Part shown: piece after piece, positions 7,424 through 56,583 of the stretch | Numbering within the stretch: position 1 is the first letter of the stretch | Layout of the letters: every line of letters begins with the position of its first letter | Assembly (NCBI GenBank): GCA_963809475.1 | Contig: CAWEJS010000001.1 | Span: 1,050,125-1,114,124 of the forward strand | Direction of reading: 5' to 3' | Length of the DNA stretch: 64,000 nt | Source: an uncultured Acidobacteriota bacterium | GTDB lineage: Bacteria; Acidobacteriota; Vicinamibacteria; Vicinamibacterales; JAKQTR01 | Program-made: the position numbers and the translations under genes | Notes under the pieces: generated by a model | What the model was told of the DNA's origin: nothing | Databases searched by the model: none | Seen by the model: the letters and a program-made list of their open reading frames with translations, nothing else

Positions 7424-7437
7424 GGTATTCCTCCGGC

Positions 7438-7462
7438 GAATCCCGAACCCCGAGTCCCGAGG
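7438..7462. repeat. short heptanucleotide array GAATCCC GAACCCC GAGTCCC GAGG
   Basis: Read directly in the 40-nt gap between the gap stop (7464) and the pgk start (7423). Confidence 0.7.
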
Positions 7463-7463
7463 C

Positions 7464-8471
7464 CTAGAGCCCCTTCGTCGCCATGTAGAGCGCCAGGTCG
7501 ATGCAGCGCACCGAGTAGGCCCACTCGTTGTCATACCAGGAGAGGACCTTCACGAAGTCGTTGTCCATCACCTTGGTGTACGCGGCGTCGATGATCGACG
7601 AGTTCGAGTTCCCGCGGAAGTCGATGGACACGAGCGGCGCGTCCTCGACGGCCAGGATGCCCTTGAGCGGGCCGGCCGCGGCCGCGCGGAACGCGGCGTT
7701 GACCTCCTCGCCGGTCGTCTGCTTCTCGAGGATGGCGGCGAGATCGACCACCGAGACGTTCGGCGTCGGCACGCGCATCGAGAACCCGTCGAGCTTGCCC
7801 TTCAGCGCCGGCAGCACCTCGCCGACGGCCTTCGCGGCGCCGGTCGTCGTCGGGATCATCGACAGGGCCGCGGCGCGCGCCCGGCGCAGGTCCTTGTGCG
7901 GGAAATCGAGGACGTTCTGGTCGTTCGTGTAGGAGTGGATGGTCGTCATCCAGCCCTTCTTGATGCCGAACGAGTCGTTCAGCACCTTGGCGAAGGGCGC
8001 CAGGCAGTTGGTCGTGCACGACGCGTTGGAGACGATGACGTGCTTCGCCGGGTCGTACAACTCGTGGTTGACGCCCATGACGAGCGTCGCGTCCGGCGCC
8101 GTCGCCGGCGCGGTGATGACCACGCGCTTCGCCCCGGCCGTGACGTGCTTCATGGCATCGTCGCGCTTGGTGAACTTGCCGGTGCCTTCGAAGACCAGGT
8201 CCACCCCGAGGTCCTTCCACGGGAGGAGCGACGGGTCCTTCTGCGACAGCACCTGGAACTTGTCGCCGCTGACGCTGATCCAGCCCTCGCCGGCCTCGAT
8301 GGTGGCCGTGAGGTTGCCGAGGATTGAGTCGTACTTCAGCAGGTGCGCGAGCGTCTTCGTGTCGGTGATGTCATTGACCGCCACGAAGTCGATGTCCTTG
8401 TGGCTGAGCGCCGCGCGCATGATGTTGCGGCCGATCCGTCCGAACCCGTTGATACCGACTTTGATTGCCAT
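7464..8471 (-). CDS. gap: type I glyceraldehyde-3-phosphate dehydrogenase
   Basis: Start at [16 protein letters not shown] (ATG 8469-8471). Catalytic SCTTNCLAP motif. Confidence 0.95.
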
Positions 8472-15479: not shown

Positions 15480-15487
15480 CGGGCGCC

Positions 15488-15550
15488 GAATCCCGAGTCC
15501 CGAGCCCCGAGTCCCGGTTCCTGGCCCCCAGCCCCCAGCCCCCAACCCCC
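15488..15550. repeat. array of nine consecutive heptanucleotides
   Basis: GAATCCC GAGTCCC GAGCCCC GAGTCCC GGTTCCT GGCCCCC AGCCCCC AGCCCCC AACCCCC, read directly between the methyltransferase stop and holB. Confidence 0.9.
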
Positions 15551-28025: not shown

Positions 28026-28385
28026 ATGCAAGGCTGGCTGTCGATTGTCCTGCTGGCGTTTCTCGGCGTGGGTTTTGCCGCCGTGTCCATGGTGGCGTCG
28101 CGCTTCCTCGGGCCCAGGAACCGGACGCCCGAGAAGGCGGCGCCGTACGAGTGCGGCATGCCGCCCGTCGGGGACGCCCGGGAGCGCCACTCGGTGAAGT
28201 TCTACCTGGTCGCGATGATCTTCCTGCTGTTCGACATCGAGGTGGCCTTCCTCTACCCGTGGGCGATGGCCGTCCGCGACTTGCGCTGGCTCGGGTTCGT
28301 CCAGGTGCTGGTGTTCTTCGTGATCCTGGTGGCGGGCTACGCGTACGTCTGGAAGAAGGGCGTGCTGGACTGGAATCGTTCGTAG
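28026..28385 (+). CDS. nuoA: NADH-quinone oxidoreductase subunit A
   Basis: 119 aa, three TM segments, PYECG and FLLFDIEVAFLYPW motifs. Confidence 0.95.
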   Translation: MQGWLSIVLLAFLGVGFAAVSMVASRFLGPRNRTPEKAAPYECGMPPVGDARERHSVKFYLVAMIFLLFDIEVAFLYPWAMAVRDLRWLGFVQVLVFFVILVAGYAYVWKKGVLDWNRS

Positions 28386-28439
28386 GCGGGCCCTGCCGCC
28401 CCGGACGACGGGCGCCGGCGCCTTTGTGACGGATGACTG

Positions 28440-28925
28440 ATGGCACCTGACGCGGACATCCCGGTTCTCACGACGACCGTCGACAAGGTCGTGCAGTGGG
28501 CCCGCCGGTCTTCCATCTGGCCGGTCACCCTCGGCCTGGCCTGCTGCGCCATCGAGATGATGTCGATGGCCGCCTCCCGCTACGACATCGCCCGGTTTGG
28601 CGCGGAGGTGTTCCGCGCCTCGCCGCGCCAGTCCGACCTCATGATCGTGGCCGGGCGGCTGTCGCGGAAGATGGCGCCGGCCGTCCGCCGCATCTACGAC
28701 CAGATGCCGGAGCCGAAGTGGGTGATCTCCATGGGCGCCTGCGCGTCGTGCGGCGGCGTCTTCGACAACTACGCCGTGGTCCAGGGGTGCGACCAGGTGG
28801 TGCCCGTCGATGTGTTCGTGCCCGGTTGTCCGCCGCGCCCAGAGGCGCTCCTGTACGCCATCATCTCGCTGCAGCGCAAGATCGACAAACAGCGGGCGTT
28901 CGGCTATCCCGCGGCCAGGTCCTGA
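28440..28925 (+). CDS. nuoB: NADH-quinone oxidoreductase subunit B
   Basis: [18 protein letters not shown] and PGCPP (N2 cluster ligands). Confidence 0.95.
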
Positions 28926-28930
28926 CACCC

Positions 28931-30061
28931 ATGGACGCATCCGCCATCGTGAGCGCGCTGAACCGGCTCGTGCCGGAATCGGGCGCCGAGGCCGTGCCGG
29001 CGATTGACCAGCCCACCGTAGTCGTTCCCGCCGATCGCCTCGTTCCCGTGTGCCGCGCGCTGCGAGACGACCCGGCGCTCCGCTTCACGGCGCTCGTCGA
29101 CATCGTCGGGGTGGACCAGCAGCCGCGGGAGCCGCGGTTCGAGGTCAACTACACCCTCGTGGCACCGGACGTGCCGGCCCGGCTCCGCGTCAAGGTGAGG
29201 ACGGGCGGAGACGGGCCTCACGTGCCGTCCGTCACCGGCATCTGGGCGTCGGCCGGTTTCCTGGAGCGCGAGGTCTGGGACTTGTTGGGCGTCGTGTTCG
29301 ACGGTCACCCGGACCTGCGGCGCATCCTCACGGCCGACGACTGGGTCGGGCACCCGCTGCGCAAGGACTACCCGGTGCAGGTCAATCTGCCGGTGAAGAC
29401 CTACGAGCCCATGCAGGTGACGGAGGAGCAGTTCAGGGAACGGATTCGAACAGGACCGGCACGCGCGGGGAGGCCGGGACTGATGCCGGACACCTTCGCC
29501 GAGGTCGTTGCGCGCAGGCTGGACGAGGCGGCTCGCCTGCACGCGGGCTGCCAGTCGGCGGTCGCGCCGGCGGCGGCAGCCGCGGAGGCCATGGTGGCGG
29601 CGATCAGGCGGGGCGGGAAGCTGCTCGCCTGTGGGAACGGCGGCAGCGCGGCGGACGCCCAGCACTTCGCGGCGGAGCTCGTCGGCCGCTTCGAGCGCGA
29701 ACGCCGGGCCATCGCGTCGATTGCCCTGACGACGGACACCTCGATTCTCACCGCGGTCGCCAACGACGACTCCTACGCGCAGGTATTCGCGCGCCAGGTG
29801 GAGGCCCTTGGCGAGGCAGGAGACGTGCTGCTCGGGATCTCGACGAGCGGCGCGTCACCCAGCGTCCTTGCGGCGTTCGCCGCGGCCAGGGCGGGCGGCC
29901 TCACCACGGTGGCCCTGACCGGCCGGGACGGCGGCGCGCTCGGCGCGGCCGCGGACATCCACATCAATGTCCCGGCGGCGTCGACGGCGCGTGCGCAGGA
30001 GGTGCACCGCACGCTGCTGCACGCGATGTGCGAGCTCGTCGAACGGGAGCTGTATGCCTGA
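28931..30061 (+). CDS. nuoC: NADH-quinone oxidoreductase subunit C fused in-frame to D-sedoheptulose-7-phosphate isomerase (NuoC-GmhA)
   Basis: ATG at 28931, 6 nt after the nuoB stop. Residues 1-184 are NuoC-like (FLEREVWDLLGVVFDGHPDLRRIL..HPLRKDYP). There is no stop codon before 30059-30061. Residues 185-376 are a full SIS/GmhA domain. Confidence 0.75.
   Translation: MDASAIVSALNRLVPESGAEAVPAIDQPTVVVPADRLVPVCRALRDDPALRFTALVDIVGVDQQPREPRFEVNYTLVAPDVPARLRVKVRTGGDGPHVPSVTGIWASAGFLEREVWDLLGVVFDGHPDLRRILTADDWVGHPLRKDYPVQVNLPVKTYEPMQVTEEQFRERIRTGPARAGRPGLMPDTFAEVVARRLDEAARLHAGCQSAVAPAAAAAEAMVAAIRRGGKLLACGNGGSAADAQHFAAELVGRFERERRAIASIALTTDTSILTAVANDDSYAQVFARQVEALGEAGDVLLGISTSGASPSVLAAFAAARAGGLTTVALTGRDGGALGAAADIHINVPAASTARAQEVHRTLLHAMCELVERELYA
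29483..30061 (+). CDS. gmhA: D-sedoheptulose-7-phosphate isomerase module, possibly also translated from an internal ATG
   Basis: 192 codons from ATG 29483, with GGGGAGG 9 nt upstream. LLACGNGGSAADAQHFAAELVGRF, VLLGISTSGASPSVL. The stop overlaps the nuoD start. Confidence 0.45.
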   Translation: MPDTFAEVVARRLDEAARLHAGCQSAVAPAAAAAEAMVAAIRRGGKLLACGNGGSAADAQHFAAELVGRFERERRAIASIALTTDTSILTAVANDDSYAQVFARQVEALGEAGDVLLGISTSGASPSVLAAFAAARAGGLTTVALTGRDGGALGAAADIHINVPAASTARAQEVHRTLLHAMCELVERELYA

Positions 30062-31235
30062 GCTGCGCACCGAGGTCCTGACGGTCAACATGGGGCCGCA
30101 GCACCCCAGTACGCACGGGGTGCTCCGCCTGGTGCTCCAGCTCGACGGCGAGACCGTGCTGTCCGTCATGCCGACCATCGGCTACCTGCACACCGGCATC
30201 GAGAAGACGGCGGAGCAGAAGAAGTGGCAGCAGGTCATCCCGCTCGTCGAGCGGATGGACTACCTCAGCGCCCACTCGAACAGCCTCTCCTACGCGTTGG
30301 CCGTCGAGAAGCTCCTCGGCCTCGAGATGCCGGATCGGGTGACGTGGATCCGCGTGCTGCTGGCCGAGCTGCAGCGGCTGAACAGCCACCTCGTCTGGCT
30401 CGGGACCCACGTGATGGACCTCGGCGCCGTCACGGTGATGCTGTACACGTTCAACGAGCGCGAGCTCATCCTGAACGTGAACGAGCTCATCGCGGGGTTT
30501 CGGATGTTCCCGAGCTACATCCGCGTGGGCGGCCTGCGCGAGGACCTTCCATCCGGGTTCCACGAGGCCGTCACGAAGATCCTCGATCGCCTGCCGGGCA
30601 AGATCGACGAGTGCGAGGACCTGCTGACCAGGAACGAGATCTTCCTCAAGCGCACCCGCGGCGTCGGCGTGCTGTCCAGGGAGGATGCGTTGGCCTGGGG
30701 CCTGGTCGGGCCGATCGCCCGGGCCTCCGGCGTGGCCTACGACGTGCGGAAGGCGTTCCCGTACTGCGGCTACGAGACCTTCGAGTTCGACGTGCCCATC
30801 GGCGCCGCCGGGGACGTGTTCGACCGGTACATGGTGCGGGTCGACGAGATGCGCCAGAGCGTGCGCCTGTGCCGGCAGGCGCTGGAGCGCATTACGCCGC
30901 GGGGCGCGCATGCGGCGAGCGACACCCGCGTCGTCCCCCCGCCGAAGGACAAGGTCTACACGGAGATGGAAGCGCTCATCCAGCACTTCCTGATCTTCTC
31001 GCAGGGCTTCACCGTGCCCGCGGGCGAAGCCTACGTGCCGGTCGAAGGGCCGCGGGGCGAGCACGGGTGCCACGTCGTCTCCGACGGAGGCAACCGCCCG
31101 TCGCGAGTGAAGATGCGGTCGCCGTCGCTCCTGGCGTGCCAGGCGATCGAGACGATGGCGAAAGGCGGGCTGATCGCCGACGTCGTGGCCGTGATCGGGT
31201 CCGCGGACGTCATCATGGGAGACGTGGACCGGTGA
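30054..31235 (+). CDS. nuoD: NADH-quinone oxidoreductase subunit D
   Basis: MPELRTEVLTVNMGPQHPSTHGVLRL. The start overlaps the upstream stop (ATGCCTGA). Confidence 0.95.
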   Translation: MPELRTEVLTVNMGPQHPSTHGVLRLVLQLDGETVLSVMPTIGYLHTGIEKTAEQKKWQQVIPLVERMDYLSAHSNSLSYALAVEKLLGLEMPDRVTWIRVLLAELQRLNSHLVWLGTHVMDLGAVTVMLYTFNERELILNVNELIAGFRMFPSYIRVGGLREDLPSGFHEAVTKILDRLPGKIDECEDLLTRNEIFLKRTRGVGVLSREDALAWGLVGPIARASGVAYDVRKAFPYCGYETFEFDVPIGAAGDVFDRYMVRVDEMRQSVRLCRQALERITPRGAHAASDTRVVPPPKDKVYTEMEALIQHFLIFSQGFTVPAGEAYVPVEGPRGEHGCHVVSDGGNRPSRVKMRSPSLLACQAIETMAKGGLIADVVAVIGSADVIMGDVDR

Positions 31236-31834
31236 CCTTCCACCCGAAGATGGCGTACGACGCGGCGTTCCACCAGTCGGTGCGCGAGTTGCCGACGCCG
31301 GGCGGGCCCTTCGTGTTCACGCCCGAGCGGCGCGCGCGCCTCGAGGAGATTGCCGGACGGTACCCGCCGGAACGCCGGCGATCGGCGCTGCTGGCGGCGC
31401 TGTACCTCGTGCAGCAGCAGCAGGGGTACGTGAGCGCCCGCGCCATGGAGCACGTGGCGGAGGTCATCGGCGTGACGCCGGCGGAGGTGGAGGACGTCGT
31501 GTCGTACTACACGATGTTCTCGGCGAAGCCGGTGGGAACCTACGTCCTGCAGGTCTGCCGCACGCTGTCGTGCGCCCTGAACGGGGCCGAGCGCGTGACG
31601 GACGTGTTGGCGCGCAAGCTGGGCATCAAACCCGGCGAGACCGATCCGGCGGGCATGTTCACCCTCGTGGAGGTGGAGTGCCTCGGGGCCTGCGATCGCG
31701 GGCCCGTCGTGATGGTGAACGATGACTGGCACGAGTGCGTGACGCCCGAGGGCGCCGGGCAGCTGGTGGACGACCTGCGGGAGAAGGGGATGGCGGGACT
31801 GAGCGGCTGCCATCTTCGCGTGGAAGGGAAGTGA
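31232..31834 (+). CDS. nuoE: NADH-quinone oxidoreductase subunit E
   Basis: GTGA overlap with nuoD (alternative ATG at 31250). 2Fe-2S ligands CRTLSC..CLGACDRGP. Confidence 0.9.
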   Translation: MTFHPKMAYDAAFHQSVRELPTPGGPFVFTPERRARLEEIAGRYPPERRRSALLAALYLVQQQQGYVSARAMEHVAEVIGVTPAEVEDVVSYYTMFSAKPVGTYVLQVCRTLSCALNGAERVTDVLARKLGIKPGETDPAGMFTLVEVECLGACDRGPVVMVNDDWHECVTPEGAGQLVDDLREKGMAGLSGCHLRVEGK

Positions 31835-31857
31835 ACGCGCATTTCTGACTCCTTGTG

Positions 31858-33144
31858 ATGAACATGGATCCAGTCCTGACCCCCTTCGTCCGCGAGCCGA
31901 ACAGCTACACCCTCGAGGTGTCGCGGCGGCACGGCGCCTACGAGGGGCTGCGGAAGGCGCTCTCGATGGAGCCCGGCCAGGTGATCGAGGCCGTCAAGGC
32001 GTCGGGCTTGCGCGGCCGCGGCGGCGCCGGCTTCCCGACGGGGATGAAGTGGAGCTTCGTCCCGAAGGACTCCGCCAGGCCCAAGTACGTGTGCTGCAAC
32101 GCGGACGAAAGCGAGCCCGGCACCTTCAAGGACCACGTGCTGATGGAGCGCAACCCGCACCTCGTCATCGAGGGCGTGGCAATCGCCTGCTACGCCATCG
32201 GCGCGAAGACGGGCTACATCTACATCCGCGGGGAGTTCCTGCATGTCGCCAGCGTCCTGGAAGCGGCCCTCGCCGAGGCGCGCGCGGCGGGGTGGCTGGG
32301 ACGGAACGTCCTGGGGAGCGGGTTCGACTGCGACATCCACGTCCACCGCGGCGCCGGCGCCTACGAGGCGGGCGAGGAGTCCGCCTTGCTCGAGTCGCTG
32401 GAAGGCAAGCGCGCGCAGCCGCGGTTGCGGCCCCCGTTCCCGGCGGTCGTCGGGCTCTACGGCTGTCCCACGGTCATCAACAACGTCGAGACCCTCGCGA
32501 ACGTGCCCCTCATCCTCGTGAAGGGCGCCGAGTGGTTCAGCGCCATCGGGCCCGACAAGAACACCGGGCCGAAGCTGTTCTGCGTGAGCGGGCACGTGGC
32601 GACGCCGGGCGTGTACGAAGCGCCGATGGACACGACACTGCGCCAGCTCATCTATGACTATGCGGGAGGGATCCGCGGCGGCCGCGCGCTGAAGGCGGTG
32701 ATCCCCGGCGGGTCCTCGACGCCCGTGCTCCTCCCGGACGCCATCGACGCGCCGGCCAGCTTCGACGGACTGGTCAAGGCCGGGTCGATGCTCGGCTCCG
32801 CCGCGATGATCGTCATGGACGATACGACGTGCATGGTGTGGGCGGCCGAGAACCTCATCCACTTCTACCGTCACGAGTCCTGCGGCAAGTGCACGCCCTG
32901 CCGTGAGGGCTCGGACTGGATGCTGAGACTCCTGCAGAAGATCGAGCGGGGCGACGGGGAGTTGCGCGATCTCGACCTGCTCGAGAGCGTGGCGCGCAAC
33001 ATCACCGGCAAGACGCTCTGCCCGTTCGGAGACGCCGAGGTGGCGCCGGTGCTGAGCACCCTGCAGCACTTCCGGCACGAGTACGAGGCGCACATGCGTG
33101 AAGGGCGCTGCCCCCTCCACGCGGCGTGGAGACGGGACGCGTGA
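31858..33144 (+). CDS. nuoF: NADH-quinone oxidoreductase subunit F
   Basis: GLRGRGGAGFPTG (FMN) and ESCGKCTPCREG (N3). Start GTG 31855, ATG 31858 or ATG 31864. Confidence 0.93.
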   Translation: MNMDPVLTPFVREPNSYTLEVSRRHGAYEGLRKALSMEPGQVIEAVKASGLRGRGGAGFPTGMKWSFVPKDSARPKYVCCNADESEPGTFKDHVLMERNPHLVIEGVAIACYAIGAKTGYIYIRGEFLHVASVLEAALAEARAAGWLGRNVLGSGFDCDIHVHRGAGAYEAGEESALLESLEGKRAQPRLRPPFPAVVGLYGCPTVINNVETLANVPLILVKGAEWFSAIGPDKNTGPKLFCVSGHVATPGVYEAPMDTTLRQLIYDYAGGIRGGRALKAVIPGGSSTPVLLPDAIDAPASFDGLVKAGSMLGSAAMIVMDDTTCMVWAAENLIHFYRHESCGKCTPCREGSDWMLRLLQKIERGDGELRDLDLLESVARNITGKTLCPFGDAEVAPVLSTLQHFRHEYEAHMREGRCPLHAAWRRDA

Positions 33145-33150
33145 AGCGCC

Positions 33151-33234
33151 GGGACTCGGGACTCGAGACTCGGGGTTCGGGACGAAGTCGCCCTGCTGAC
33201 TACTGGCTTCTGGCTTCTGGCTACTGACGACTGA
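33151..33234. repeat. array of twelve heptanucleotides filling the nuoF-nuoH gap
   Basis: GGGACTC GGGACTC GAGACTC GGGGTTC GGGACGA AGTCGCC CTGCTGA CTACTGG CTTCTGG CTTCTGG CTACTGA CGACTGA, running into the nuoH ATG. Confidence 0.9.
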
Positions 33235-34256
33235 TGCTTCCACTGTACGTCGCCCAGATCGGCATCGTCCTTGTGGTCTTCGTGGGGCTGCTCCTCGCCG
33301 CGGCCGTGATGGTCTACTCGGAGCGCAAGGTGGCGGGGTTCATCCAGCAGCGCTACGGGCCGTACCTCGTGGGGCCGAAGGGCCTCCTCCAGCCCTTCGC
33401 GGACGTCTTCAAGCTGATCTTCAAGGAGTCGCTGCAGCCCGCCGCCGCGGACCGCGTCCTCTTCTACGTCGCGCCGATCCTGTCGGCCACGGCGGCCTTC
33501 GCGGCGTTCGCCGTCGTGCCGTTCGGCGCCGAGACGACGCTGTTCGGGCTGTTGAAGGAGCCGATCTCCCTGCAGGTCGCCGACGTCAACGTGGCCGTGC
33601 TCGTGGTCTTCGCCATCACGTCGATCAGCATCTACGGGATCGTGCTGGCGGGCTGGAGCTCCAACAGCAAGTACTCGCTGCTCGGCGCGCTCCGCTCGGC
33701 GTCCCAGATGATCAGCTACGAGCTGTCCTACGGCATCTCGCTGGCGTCGGTCCTGCTCCTCGCGGGCTCGCTCTCGCTGACGGATATCGTGAACGCCCAG
33801 CAGGGCGCCTGGCTGGGCTTCATCCCGCGCTGGTTCGTGTTCGTGCAGCCGATCGGCTTCGTCGTCTTCATGATCGCCGGCGTGGCCGAGACGAACCGCG
33901 CGCCCTTCGACTTCCCCGAGGCGGAACAGGAGCTGGTGGCCGGCTACCACACCGAGTACAGCAGCACGCCGTTCATGATGTTCTTCCTCGCGGAGTACAT
34001 CAACATGGTGACGACGGCCGCCGTGGCGACGGACCTGTTCCTCGGCGGCTGGCACGGGCCGTTCCTGCCGGAGTCGCTCGGGTGGATCTGGTTCCTCGTC
34101 AAGACGGGCGCCATCCTGTTCTTCTACATCTGGATGCGGTGGACGCTGCCGCGGCTGCGGTACGACCAGCTGATGCGGTTCGGGTGGAAGGTGATGCTGC
34201 CGCTCGCGGCGCTCAACCTGATCCTCACGGCGGCGGGGGTGATCGCCCTTGGCTGA
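33234..34256 (+). CDS. nuoH: NADH-quinone oxidoreductase subunit H
   Basis: ERKVAGFIQQRYGP and RAPFDFPEAEQELVAGYHTEYS motifs. Confidence 0.95.
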   Translation: MLPLYVAQIGIVLVVFVGLLLAAAVMVYSERKVAGFIQQRYGPYLVGPKGLLQPFADVFKLIFKESLQPAAADRVLFYVAPILSATAAFAAFAVVPFGAETTLFGLLKEPISLQVADVNVAVLVVFAITSISIYGIVLAGWSSNSKYSLLGALRSASQMISYELSYGISLASVLLLAGSLSLTDIVNAQQGAWLGFIPRWFVFVQPIGFVVFMIAGVAETNRAPFDFPEAEQELVAGYHTEYSSTPFMMFFLAEYINMVTTAAVATDLFLGGWHGPFLPESLGWIWFLVKTGAILFFYIWMRWTLPRLRYDQLMRFGWKVMLPLAALNLILTAAGVIALG

Positions 34257-34257
34257 G

Positions 34258-34773
34258 ATGCTGCTCTTCTACCTGTTTGCGGCCGGGGCCGTCGCGGCCT
34301 CGCTGGCCGTCGTGCTGGGCCGCAACCCGATGCACAGCGTCCTGCTGCTCATCGTGTCGTTCGCCGCGCTCGCCGGCCTCTACATCGGCCTCGACGCGCC
34401 CTTCGCGGCGGTGGTGCAGATCATCATCTACGCCGGCGCCATCATGGTGCTTTTCCTCTTCGTCGTGATGCTGCTCAACGCGCACCGGGAGGACGACGCG
34501 GAAGCCGGCGCGGGACTCGCGCACGCGCCGCTGCGCGCGGGCGCGGTGCTGGCGGCGGTGCTGGTGGCCGAACTGGGCTGGGCGCTTGCCCGGACCCGCA
34601 GCGTGAGCCGTGCGTGGCCCGGCGGCCCGGCGGCCGACGCGTCCGCGCTCCAGTCCGTGCGGGCGCTGGGCAACGTGCTCTACCGGGACTATTCGCTCGC
34701 GTTCGAAGTGACGTCGATTCTCATCATCGTCGCCATGGTCGGCGCCGTCGTGCTGGCCCGGCGGGAGTCGTAA
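34258..34773 (+). CDS. nuoJ: NADH-quinone oxidoreductase subunit J
   Basis: MLLFYLFAAGAV..VQIIIYAGAIMVLFLFVVMLL. ATG at 34258, 2 nt after the nuoH stop (the track ORF begins at TTG 34249). Confidence 0.9.
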   Translation: MLLFYLFAAGAVAASLAVVLGRNPMHSVLLLIVSFAALAGLYIGLDAPFAAVVQIIIYAGAIMVLFLFVVMLLNAHREDDAEAGAGLAHAPLRAGAVLAAVLVAELGWALARTRSVSRAWPGGPAADASALQSVRALGNVLYRDYSLAFEVTSILIIVAMVGAVVLARRES

Positions 34774-34777
34774 CGCG

Positions 34778-35070
34778 ATGCCTCTGGGTTACTACCTGCT
34801 CCTGTCCGCCATCCTGTTCGCCACCGGCACGATGGGCGTCTTCCTGCGCCGCAACGTGATCACGGTGCTCCTCTCGATCGAGGTGATGCTCAACGCCGTC
34901 AACCTCGCGTTCATCGCCTTCGGCCGGTTCCAGGGGTCGGTGGACGGCCAGGTCATCATGTTCTTCGTCGTCACCGTCGCCGCGGCCGAGGCGGCCGTCG
35001 GGCTGGCGCTGGTCATCGCGCTCTTCCGGCACCGCGAGTCGCTCAACCCGGACGCGTTCACGAGCCTGAA

Positions 35071-35077
<7 letters not shown>
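34778..35077 (+). CDS. nuoK: NADH-quinone oxidoreductase subunit K
   Basis: 99 aa, three TM segments, LSIEVMLNAVNLAF..AAAEAAVGLA. Confidence 0.95.
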
Positions 35078-37187
<2,110 letters not shown>

Positions 37188-37197
<10 letters not shown>

Positions 37198-38792
37198 TGC
37201 CGATCCTCTCCGTGCTCATCGCGCTGCCGCTTGCCGCGGCCGTGCTGCTGCTCCTCGTGCCGGACCGCGATCACGAACGCGACGGCTTCGCCCGGTGGTT
37301 CGCCCTCGGCGCCTCGCTCGTCGAGTTCGCGGCCACGCTGTGGATGTGGAGCCGGTTCAATCCGTCGTCGGCGGACTTCCAGATGGTCGAGCGGGTCGAG
37401 TGGATCCCGTCGTTCGGGATCCAGTACGCCGTCGGCGTCGACGGCATCAGCCTGTTCCTCGTCGTGCTGACCGGGTTCCTCACGCCGCTCGCGCTCCTCG
37501 GGTCCTGGCCGTCGGTGCACAAGAAGGTGAAGACGTTCTCCGTCTTCATGCTGGCGCTCGAGAGCGCGATGGTCGGCGTGTTCCTGTCCCTGGACATGTT
37601 CCTGTTCTACGTGTTCTGGGACGCGATGCTCATCCCGATGTACTTCCTCATCGGGGTCTGGGGCTACGAGCGGCGCGTCTACGCGGCCGTGAAGTTCCTC
37701 CTCTACACGATGGCCGGCAGCGTGCTCATGCTGGTCGCGATCCTGACCGTGGCGTACCTGCACAGCGTGTCGATGGGGTCGTACAGCTTCGACTACGAGG
37801 CTTGGCTCGCGCTCGCGCTGCCGCGGAACACCCAGACATGGCTGTTCCTGGCGTTCGCGGTGGCCTTCGCCATCAAGGTGCCACTGTTCCCGTTCCACAC
37901 GTGGCTGCCCGACGCGCACGTCGAGGCGCCCACCGCCGGGTCGGTGATCCTGGCCGGCGTCCTTCTGAAGATGGGCACGTACGGGCTGCTGCGGTTCGCG
38001 TTCCCGCTCTTCCCGGACGCCGCCGCACGCTTCGCGCCGGCGCTGGCCGTGCTGGCCGTCATCGGCATCGTCTACGGGGCGCTCGTGGCGATGGTGCAGC
38101 CGGACATGAAGAAGCTCGTGGCCTACTCGAGCGTGAGCCACCTGGGCCTCGTCGTCCTCGGCATCACCGCGATGAACGTGCAGGCCGTGCAGGGCGCGGT
38201 GTACCAGATGCTGAACCACGGCATCTCGACCGGCGCGCTGTTCCTCATCGTCGGCATGCTGTCCGACCGGCGCCATACGCGCCTCATCGCGGAGTTCGGC
38301 GGGCTGAAGCACGTGATGCCGCGCCTCGTGGCCGCGTTCTTCGTCGTCACGCTGTCGTCGATCGGGCTGCCCGGCCTGAACGGGTTCGTCGGCGAGTTCC
38401 TGATCCTGTTCGGTGCGTTCCGGTGGAACCCGTGGCTGACCGCCGTGGCCGCGACCGGGCTGATCCTGTCGGCGGTCTACATGCTGTGGATGTTCCAGCG
38501 TGTCAACTACGGGGCCGTGACGAACCCGAAGAACGAGGGCCTGAAGGACATGGACGCGCGCGAGGGGTGGGTGCTCGTGCCGGCCATCGCCATGGCCGTG
38601 TTCATGGGCGTGGCGCCGTGGGTGTTCCTGAACCCGATGAAGCCCGCCGTCGAGCGTATCGTGTCGCGGATGGCCGAGGCCGGCCCCGCGAGGGTGGTGC
38701 GCGTGGCGGCGCCGCCGCCGGCGCTCCATCCTGCGAAAATGGGGTCAGGCACTGTTTCCGAGCAGGGGCCAGGCCCCTCGAGCGGCAGGTGA
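37188..38792 (+). CDS. nuoM: NADH-quinone oxidoreductase subunit M
   Basis: Overlaps the nuoL stop. FPFHTWLPDAHVEAPTAGSVILAG. The last ~15 codons are encoded by a palindromic repeat element. Confidence 0.93.
38764..38778. repeat. AGGGGCCAGGCCCCT palindrome inside the nuoM 3' end
   Basis: Identical to 40277-40291. Preceded by TCAGGCACT (38745-38753), whose reverse complement AGTGCCTGA occurs at 40355-40363. Confidence 0.85.
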
Positions 38793-56503: not shown

Positions 56504-56534
56504 GCGGGACCGCGTCAGAAGAAAGTAGCAGGAC

Positions 56535-56583
56535 GCAAGAAGCAAGACGGCCCTTCTGGCTTCTTGCTTCTTCTCGCTCTCTC
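56535..56583 (+). terminator. candidate intrinsic terminator after rplI, built from the CAAGAAG/CTTCTTG repeat units
   Basis: GCAAGAAGCAAGAC-GGCC-CTTCTGGCTTCTTGC (12 bp with one mismatch) followed by the pyrimidine run TTCTTCTCGCTCTCTC. Confidence 0.4.

Follow-up and report, generated by a model that had tools for sequence, protein, structure and literature searches.

We found that the gap between nuoF and nuoH in a 64,000-nt stretch of the genome of an uncultured soil acidobacterium (the whole stretch is henceforth the window; the genome, G000, comprises 4.75 Mb on two contigs, with 68.8% GC and 100% completeness) is filled by tandem heptanucleotides that belong to a genome-wide family of intergenic period-7 arrays. 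The family follows a strand rule which the nuoF–nuoH tract also obeys. The tract was inserted where the two genes overlapped, its units and copy number turn over rapidly among relatives, and nuoH has lost both its coupling to nuoF and its ribosome-binding site. The tract is an ordinary member of a known, unexplained repeat class rather than a device specific to nuoF/nuoH. It probably consists of two adjoining members of a family of intergenic heptanucleotide simple sequence repeats that spans the genus, inserted into an ancestral ATGA overlap, with no role particular to the locus.

The gap between the nuoF stop codon (33142–33144) and the nuoH ATG (33234) measures 89 nt; the nuoH start is backed by an N-terminus (M-L/I-P-L/V-Y) that alignments show to be kept among relatives. 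After the nuoF TGA comes AGCGCC, and from 33151 on the sequence consists of 7-nt units. A sequence-only reading of the window had proposed that twelve heptamers fill 33151–33234. This parse is exact, although Tandem Repeats Finder (TRF) resolves it into two arrays rather than one, so that five G-tract units are followed by one degenerate junction unit and six CU-rich units. The features concerned are as follows (ORF, open reading frame).

31855–33144, + strand: nuoF (NADH dehydrogenase subunit F), stop TGA at 33142–33144; Pfam PF01512, PF10589 and SLBB; from the ORF list
33151–33185, + strand: stop-proximal G-tract array GGGACTC GGGACTC GAGACTC GGGGTTC GGGACGA; from sequence parse, TRF and lag-7 scan
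33186–33192, + strand: degenerate junction unit AGTCGCC between the arrays, in neither TRF array
33193–33234, + strand: start-proximal pyrimidine-rich array CTGCTGA CTACTGG CTTCTGG CTTCTGG CTACTGA CGACTGA; from parse, TRF and lag-7 scan
33234–34256, + strand: nuoH (NADH dehydrogenase subunit H), PF00146

TRF placed the two arrays at 33150–33183 (unit CGGGACT, 4.9 copies) and 33203–33226 (unit CTGGCTT, 3.4 copies) with scores of 47 and 41, and a lag-7 self-match scan placed them at 33150–33172 and 33196–33234. The G-tract array starts 6 nt past the nuoF stop, while the final A of the CU-rich array (33234) doubles as the A of the nuoH ATG. Two further features in that reading hold as described: four sense-strand tracts of three or more G (33151–33153, 33158–33160, 33172–33175 and 33179–33181) are separated by loops of 4, 11 and 3 nt, and nuoH lacks a Shine-Dalgarno sequence, with no GGAG, GAGG or AGGA in the 25 nt 5' of its ATG (−25 to −1). 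The gap contains no promoter-like (sigma-70) or intrinsic terminator-like site, no Rfam family and no ORF remnant.

A genome-wide heptanucleotide family and its strand rule

Relatives of its NuoH assign G000 to the order Vicinamibacterales within Acidobacteriota. To count arrays we called genes afresh in G000 (3,639 genes, 87% coding) and used a lag-p self-match scan with an equal threshold for every period. The scan returned 111 intergenic and 26 coding arrays of period 7, compared with 0–4 intergenic arrays at periods 5, 8, 10 and 11. At a stricter score the numbers were 56 and 0, respectively, and TRF (score of at least 50) reported 65 period-7 arrays and none of periods 8 and 10. Intergenic DNA, which makes up 12.8% of the genome, holds 81% of the period-7 arrays. 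The enrichment which the sequence-only reading had named as a check on its proposal is therefore massive, and the proposal survives it. By contrast, the enrichment within operons for which it suggested a test did not appear: co-directional gaps hold 66% of the arrays and account for 67% of gaps. Indeed, arrays are distributed over gap types in proportion to gap numbers, and divergent gaps are not under-represented per gap.

The commonest unit, ACTCGGG (equivalent to GGGACTC), accounts for 37 intergenic arrays; other common units are ACTACTG, AAGCCAG, AGCCCCG, AAGAAGC, ACTCCTG, ACTGGCT, AGCCCCC and ACTGGGG. The unit pair of the nuoF–nuoH gap recurs in a twin gap elsewhere on the first contig (C1:1119556–1119693), and G-type and CT-type arrays were combined in 5 of the 13 multi-array gaps that we inspected. 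The units of G000 are also present in same-genus genomes, and in a second such genome (G314) a 400-kb sample contained 27 period-7 arrays and 0–1 at other periods. The word (GGGACTC)3 occurs 18 times in G000 and once across 300 other Acidobacteriota, whereas the reversed control word (CTCAGGG)3 gave 40 and 63 hits in two other genomes (G086 and G289). The 40 hits fall in one genome of the same order. Another Acidobacteriota genome accounts for the 63, every one of which lies on a single strand; other lineages thus evidently have their own dominant heptamer, in one case apparently strand-biased.

Intergenic arrays in G000 are placed and oriented non-randomly. In 89 of 111 cases the purine-rich strand starts at the nearer gene boundary (odds ratio 16, Fisher p = 2e-10), and the median distance between an array and its nearest boundary is 7 nt, compared with 22 nt under random placement in the same gaps. 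Specifically, in co-directional gaps the G/A-rich reading (e.g., GGGACTC, AGTAGTC, AAGAAGC, AAGCCAG or CGGGGCT) lies 0–10 nt past the upstream stop, and the complementary C/U-rich reading lies directly 5' of the downstream start. Convergent and divergent gaps follow the same polarity. Of the 15 co-directional gaps in which the G-rich strand of the ACTCGGG unit is sense, 12 have it at most 8 nt past the stop, and the CTGGCTT and ACTACTG families occur genome-wide before start codons, oriented as they are at nuoH. The rule also holds in the G314 sample (23 of 27 arrays; p = 4e-4). With its stop-proximal G-rich array and start-proximal CU-rich array, the nuoF–nuoH gap obeys both halves of it.

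We considered two causes for this polarity and rejected both. Replication strand does not account for it, as array orientation showed no pattern along either contig. Nor is orientation chosen so that the initiation region stays free of structure, as start-proximal arrays that were flipped in silico showed no significant change in predicted structure (p = 0.11; for nuoH, −21.7 native and −19.0 flipped). Given that flipped arrays are not significantly more structured, low structure belongs to these repeats in either orientation and does not explain the polarity.

Arrays of the same kind lie at three other places in the window.

7437–7470, + strand: CGAATCC CGAACCC CGAGTCC CGAGGCC; TRF
15486–15550, + strand: (CCGAGTC)4.4, the reverse complement of the unit at 33151, then (GCCCCCA)3.9; TRF and lag-7 scan
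56517–56572, + strand: inverted pair, purine-rich (AGAAGCA)n first and then the complementary, pyrimidine-rich (CTTCTTG)n; TRF

History of the nuoF/nuoH junction

Six of the eight other same-genus genomes have no gap between nuoF and nuoH. The two genes overlap as ATGA in five of these (G311–G315), as well as at loci L001–L004, L083, L084 and L086–L089, and as TGATG in G310. Relatives with an overlapping junction have a GGAGG 8 nt 5' of the nuoH ATG, inside the nuoF codons for Trp-Arg-Arg (their sequence reads ctGGAGGcgcggcgcATGA). The window has a counterpart of this site about 100 nt 5' of nuoH.

33128–33132, + strand: GGAGA in the nuoF codons Trp-Arg-Arg, the decayed counterpart of the relatives' GGAGG; read from the sequence

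In a comparison of these codons with relatives L167–L172, those with the ATGA overlap have TGG AGG, and the array-bearing window and L081 have the synonymous TGG AGA. The change may reflect relaxed selection on a ribosome-binding site that had become useless; counter to this idea, array-bearing G316 and G309 still have GGAGG.

Where arrays are present, they differ between lineages. One version, L081 (96% DNA identity), has the same two-part layout with other units, namely (GGGGCTG/GGGACTG)6 followed by (CTACTGG)5 in a gap of 94 nt; in L082, CTACTGA/G units adjoin the nuoH ATG. Further versions are found in G316, with (TGGGGGC)5 ... (CTTCTGA)7 and a gap of 127 nt, and in G309, L090 and L085, with (GGGATTC)5 followed by CTACTGG or CTGGCTT units and a gap of about 82 nt. 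These six (L081, L082, G316, G309, L090 and L085) combine a G-tract with a CU-rich array, in gaps of 82–127 nt. We found no Shine-Dalgarno sequence and no complementary arms in any of them, and no conserved core among the homologous spacers. This variation bears out the suggestion, made from the window alone, of a variable-length, slippage-type tract: units, copy number and gap differ already in L081 (94 nt), and elsewhere the gap measures 82 or 127 nt or is missing altogether. Given that the genes overlap in most same-genus relatives and that several lineages carry arrays with other units and copy numbers, the tract is a recent and labile insertion.

Trees of nuoH and nuoF place the window, L081 and L082, as well as G316, in one clade (support 100/100) together with the overlapping L003, L083 and G311, and nest G309 and L090 elsewhere among genomes with an overlapping junction. 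As array-bearing lineages are interleaved with overlapping ones, there must have been at least 2–3 gains, or gains combined with precise losses, or recombination. Turnover is also seen beyond this junction: among eight alignable orthologous intergenic regions of G314 and G000, five keep arrays with altered units and three are empty in G000. The sequence gcgcATGA ... gagcgATGA surrounds the insert in G309, L090 and L085 and is not clear in the window, L081 or G316; we therefore treat a target-site duplication as a lead only. A search for other contigs that encode the same NuoH without any difference found none.

More distant Vicinamibacterales (L009, L013, L019, L025, L034, L040 and G304) have unrelated heptamer arrays between nuoF and nuoH, and 353 kb of distant Vicinamibacterales nuo loci contain 32 period-7 arrays and 0–7 at other periods. 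In the same-family genome G304 (L164), the gap holds eight AACTGAC / GACTGAG units that end 4 nt before the nuoH ATG, and one stretch of this array is exactly TAACTGA, the repeat of Beggiatoaceae. The nuoE–nuoF junction is a second recurrent heptamer site in the order, often with inverted pairs (L001, L002, L009, L012, L025, L026, L032, L037 and L043); these arrays lie at about positions 1400–1700 of the loci, and distant relatives also have arrays there. In the window, that junction measures only 20 nt and has no array. Outside the order, 163 kb around the nuo genes of L056–L080 (Bacteroidota and others) showed period 7 as the only enriched non-triplet period (14 arrays compared with 0–1).

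The nuo cluster of the window (28026–38792) comprises nuoA–F followed by nuoH, J, K, L and M, with neither nuoG nor nuoI; Pfam searches of the flanking genes confirmed NuoE, NuoF, NuoH and NuoJ. Elsewhere, contig 1 has a region that resembles the N-terminus of NuoG (41% identity over 295 aa) as well as a NuoI-like gene (C1:41533–42411 and C1:1732164–1732631), and a second nuoH/J/L set is found on contig 2 (C2:1186966–1194018).

Structure, initiation and rival explanations

The sequence-only reading had suggested that the array acts as an RNA structure and sets the nuoF/nuoH translation ratio. Neither suggestion is favoured by our results. On neither strand is the predicted fold of the gap with its flanks better than that of dinucleotide shuffles (z = +0.91 and −0.20), and the predicted quadruplex is absent from the quadruplex-aware minimum-energy fold (G4Hunter 1.23), which instead contains a competing hairpin on a CTCGAG palindrome that arises from the variant unit GAGACTC.

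33146–33176, + strand: predicted local RNA hairpin, −16.9 kcal/mol, on the CTCGAG palindrome; quadruplex-aware ViennaRNA fold

With one loop of 11 nt (4, 11, 3), the G tracts also fall outside the canonical motif G3+N1-7G3+N1-7G3+N1-7G3+, and in these models the G-quadruplex motif at nuoF–nuoH is marginal. A wobble hairpin between the two arrays (GGGACUC with GGCUUCU, 6 of 7 positions when G-U pairs are used) can be discarded, as the arms remain unpaired in every minimum-energy fold and shuffled sequences fold more strongly. A dedicated setter of the translation ratio is, in turn, argued against by the lack of conservation of the array at this junction.

GGAG or GAGG occurs at −18 to −5 of about 34% of predicted starts, compared with 10% in a control window; the organism thus uses such sites, and nuoH has lost its own. 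At the same time, the region from −40 to +20 of nuoH folds at −8.8 kcal/mol, which is less structured than in 96% of genes, and the 20 genes with pyrimidine-rich arrays at most 25 nt upstream average −10.7 kcal/mol, compared with −18.0 kcal/mol genome-wide (p = 7e-7). Judging by these predicted folds, nuoH may have a standby or unstructured ribosome landing site. Ribosomal protein S1 favours unstructured pyrimidine-rich leaders.

The explanation we favour can be put as follows. Heptamer arrays entered a nuoF/nuoH junction whose ancestral form was an overlap of 4 nt (ATGA); this abolished the stop/start overlap and put the GGAGG embedded in nuoF about 100 nt from nuoH. Replication slippage would be the motor of subsequent change, since copy number and units differ even at 96% flanking identity, the pattern expected of slippage together with the spread of unit variants. 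The gap is presumably transcribed within the nuo operon, and ribosomes would now initiate on nuoH independently of a Shine-Dalgarno sequence, from a leader that is pyrimidine-rich and unstructured. Polarity would mirror the orientation tolerated by selection beside starts and stops rather than any tuning of nuoF/nuoH, and the tract would have no regulatory role specific to the locus. Several observations weigh against this account. The case for slippage is drawn from comparisons between species, and the polarity rule is accounted for neither by predicted structure, which flips do not raise significantly, nor by replication strand, for which no bias was seen along the two contigs. Moreover, at least two clades have the same two-part layout (G-tract array, then CU-rich array up to the ATG) at this one junction. 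Undirected slippage that starts from an overlap of 4 nt would hardly produce such a layout, which hints that a pre-formed element was inserted or that strains recombined. Finally, all four same-genus versions with a recovered stop side (the window, L081, G316 and G309) have at least four G tracts, so there may be some selection for these.

This last observation would fit a functional cis-element, in which the sense G tracts form a quadruplex in RNA or non-template DNA past nuoF, the CU-rich array serves as a standby or S1 site, and the two jointly set how well the nuoF part of the mRNA is translated, or how stable it is, relative to the nuoH part. Four sense-strand tracts are present in the gap, those of L081, G316 and G309 have canonical short loops, and runs of at least four G3 tracts at exact 7-nt spacing number 74 genome-wide, compared with 3–10 at spacings of 5, 6, 8 and 9. 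The unusually unstructured nuoH leader without a Shine-Dalgarno sequence points the same way, as do the related Xanthomonas and Nostoc units that form quadruplexes in vitro (PMC4692102) and the TAACTGA repeats found at the ribosome-binding position in Beggiatoaceae (PMC4679880). Yet one tract of the gap is broken (GAGACTC), which creates the 11-nt loop, and the G4Hunter score and preferred hairpin reported above speak against a quadruplex. Counts by tract number drop monotonically (154, 41, 22, 8, 3), so there is no preference for exactly four tracts, and six of eight other same-genus genomes manage without any gap here, hence no conserved requirement. Together with the proportional spread of arrays over all gap types, this leaves such an element quite unlikely in our judgement. 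Chance periodicity or an assembly artefact, for which one could cite the shortness of each array (about 5–6 units), is vanishingly improbable: it is at odds with the TRF scores and with the 0–4 intergenic arrays at other non-triplet periods genome-wide, and is already refuted by independent assemblies and metagenome contigs that carry homologous arrays at nuoF–nuoH.

A further alternative concerns origin only and is compatible with the present behaviour that we favour, namely that the tract, although it has no ORF, is related to or left over from the heptamer-armed cassettes that carry a gene for PF05635 (23S_rRNA_IVP, the 23S rRNA intervening-sequence protein, a four-helix bundle), its arrays being the former arms. 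PF05635 genes occur in 87 of the 121 genomes of the order (1–17 copies each), including same-genus G311, and in at least 15 of the 19 loci inspected the gene is preceded by a purine-rich array and followed by its pyrimidine-rich complement, between the neighbour's stop and the next start, i.e., with the polarity seen at nuoF–nuoH. In two genomes of the same family (G302:C8, L210, and G301:C1, L212) such a gene, with (AGGTTAC)n and (CCTGTAA)n arms, separates atpA from atpG, inserted exactly at their junction; in G000 the stop and start of these two genes overlap as TAATG (C2:1941836–1941874). At two junctions occupied by G311 cassettes, G000 has only short arrays. One is a 40-nt gap (C1:1520679–1520719) that aligns base for base with the downstream arm and flank of the cassette in G311:C13 (L205; CTAGCGCC CAGCGCC TAGTCCC ...) and resembles a cassette-less allele, with the break at a CTAG common to both arms; the other is an ORF-less purine-then-pyrimidine pair. 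Elements with an S23p ORF in intervening sequences (IVS) are, moreover, bordered by inverted repeats that RNase III cuts (PMC4990558). Against this, G000 is complete and has more than 100 near-perfect arrays, yet no PF05635 gene (tblastn gave only a spurious carB hit), so a resident gene whose cassette arms the arrays would be can be dismissed. PF05635 was likewise absent from nuoF–nuoH in about 170 loci of relatives, the arms (GGGACTC and CTTCTGG/CTACTGA) are non-complementary in the window and in every same-genus version and unpaired in predicted folds, and the gap is only 89 nt long, without an ORF remnant. Since none of these nuoF–nuoH loci has the gene and the arms are not complementary, we retain a relation to cassettes only as a rival account of origin, and an unlikely one. 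In one other cassette of the same genus (L204, G311:C14), the arms consist of 9-nt rather than 7-nt units (AAGGTAAAG and its complement).

Arrays and cassettes share the purine-then-pyrimidine polarity, and a bolder possibility, which we hold to be distinctly improbable, is that an insertion process which targets gene junctions has the arrays as its working ends or leaves them as its footprints. Such a process would place elements with a purine-rich and then a pyrimidine-rich arm, whether or not they contain a PF05635 gene, exactly between a stop codon and the next start. If so, even overlapping, translationally coupled genes of essential operons (nuo, atp) would be split; polarity would be a mechanistic signature (e.g., of avoiding free C-rich, Rho-loading nascent RNA in either direction, or of a processing requirement); and ORF-less elements would persist and be remodelled in G000 without a resident PF05635 gene.

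Returning to repeats without a locus-specific role, the nuoF–nuoH locus is ordinary for G000, yet as a natural experiment on this unexplained class of repeats it is a clean one. An essential, translationally coupled junction (ATGA with an embedded Shine-Dalgarno sequence) has repeatedly given way, inside a single genus, to 80–130 nt of repeats without a ribosome-binding site. As the complex I genes are intact in the array-bearing lineages, pyrimidine-rich repeat leaders must there be able to support initiation that is efficient and needs no Shine-Dalgarno sequence.

Comparison with known systems

Palindromic elements of the repetitive extragenic palindrome (REP), bacterial interspersed mosaic element (BIME) or miniature inverted-repeat transposable element (MITE) type are a poor match to the tract, which has no significant fold on either strand and no conserved spacer core. 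The 23S rRNA IVS elements with an S23p ORF, which are bordered by RNase III-cut inverted repeats (PMC4990558), lead to the PF05635 cassettes, which are common in the same order and genus and with which the tract shares heptamer arms, purine-then-pyrimidine polarity, exact stop–start placement and insertion between adjacent, often overlapping genes (here the ancestral ATGA). Unlike a cassette, it has no ORF and non-complementary arms, hence no stem for RNase III, in a genome without PF05635.

For the start-proximal array, the nearest parallel is the TAACTGA repeats of marine Beggiatoaceae, Cyanobacteria and Bacteroidetes, which adjoin start codons that lack a Shine-Dalgarno sequence and for which S1, Csp or CsrA have been proposed as binders (MacGregor 2015; PMC4679880). 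Both are forward heptamers that end a few nt from the start, in the position of a ribosome-binding site and without a Shine-Dalgarno sequence; both occur in essential operons, and the core ACTGA is shared with the nuoH units CTACTGA and CGACTGA. By contrast, the unit at nuoH differs from TAACTGA at two positions, and G000 has high GC, many units and a stop-proximal partner array. A second parallel is given by the short tandemly repeated repetitive (STRR) heptamers of heterocystous cyanobacteria (Calothrix; cited as ref. 39 in PMC4692102). They resemble the G000 arrays in being tandem, intergenic heptanucleotides with several unit families per genome, and the complement of STRR1, ACTGGGG, forms three arrays in G000 as well as the L081 array at nuoF–nuoH. 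The STRR1–3 units (CCCCAGT, TTGGTCA and CAACAGT) are not those of the nuoF–nuoH tract in the window, and the host phylum differs.

The closest match lies among intergenic heptanucleotide simple sequence repeats (Mrazek-type long repeats; Rehm-type GGGNATC repeats), in the class described by Rehm et al. (2015). Its units, GGGAATC in Xanthomonas and GGGGA(C/T)T in Nostoc, form quadruplexes in vitro and have no known function (PMC4692102). The sequence-only reading, which knew of no heptamer arrays in a high-GC diderm, is outdated in this respect, given that Xanthomonas is itself such an organism and its repeats have been characterised (PMC4692102). Our literature search found no description of heptamer repeats in Acidobacteria or Vicinamibacterales. 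As in Xanthomonas and Nostoc, the G000 units have period 7 and one tract of three or four G per unit (GGGACTC, GGGATTC), and the class is present in hundreds of copies, almost all of them non-coding and unlinked to gene function. The published repeats also vary widely in length and sequence when a given gene pair is compared among close relatives (PMC4692102). We likewise found at least three head-to-tail units and variation at one gene pair at nuoF–nuoH, and a genome-wide excess of period 7 in non-coding DNA. The positional rule in those genomes, whereby the G-rich strand lies up to 50 bp past a stop codon or is the non-coding strand just upstream of a start (PMC4692102), is followed by 89 of 111 arrays in G000 and at nuoF, where the G-tract array begins 6 nt past the stop.

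G000 departs from these repeats in its phylum (Acidobacteriota, Vicinamibacterales), in showing no sharp preference for four units and no under-representation of divergent gaps per gap, and, at nuoF–nuoH, in a quadruplex motif weakened by its 11-nt loop. It also has units without a G tract (CTTCTGG, CTACTGA, CTTCTTG and their complements) that follow the same polarity. The strand rule of Xanthomonas and Nostoc is thereby extended to a third phylum and to units that lack G tracts. According to a 2007 finding, as cited in PMC4692102, heptamers are over-represented among long simple repeats, and polymerase slippage was suggested to favour the 7-nt unit; a cause for the polarity, if found, would explain the dominance of 7-nt units among long simple repeats in many bacterial genomes.

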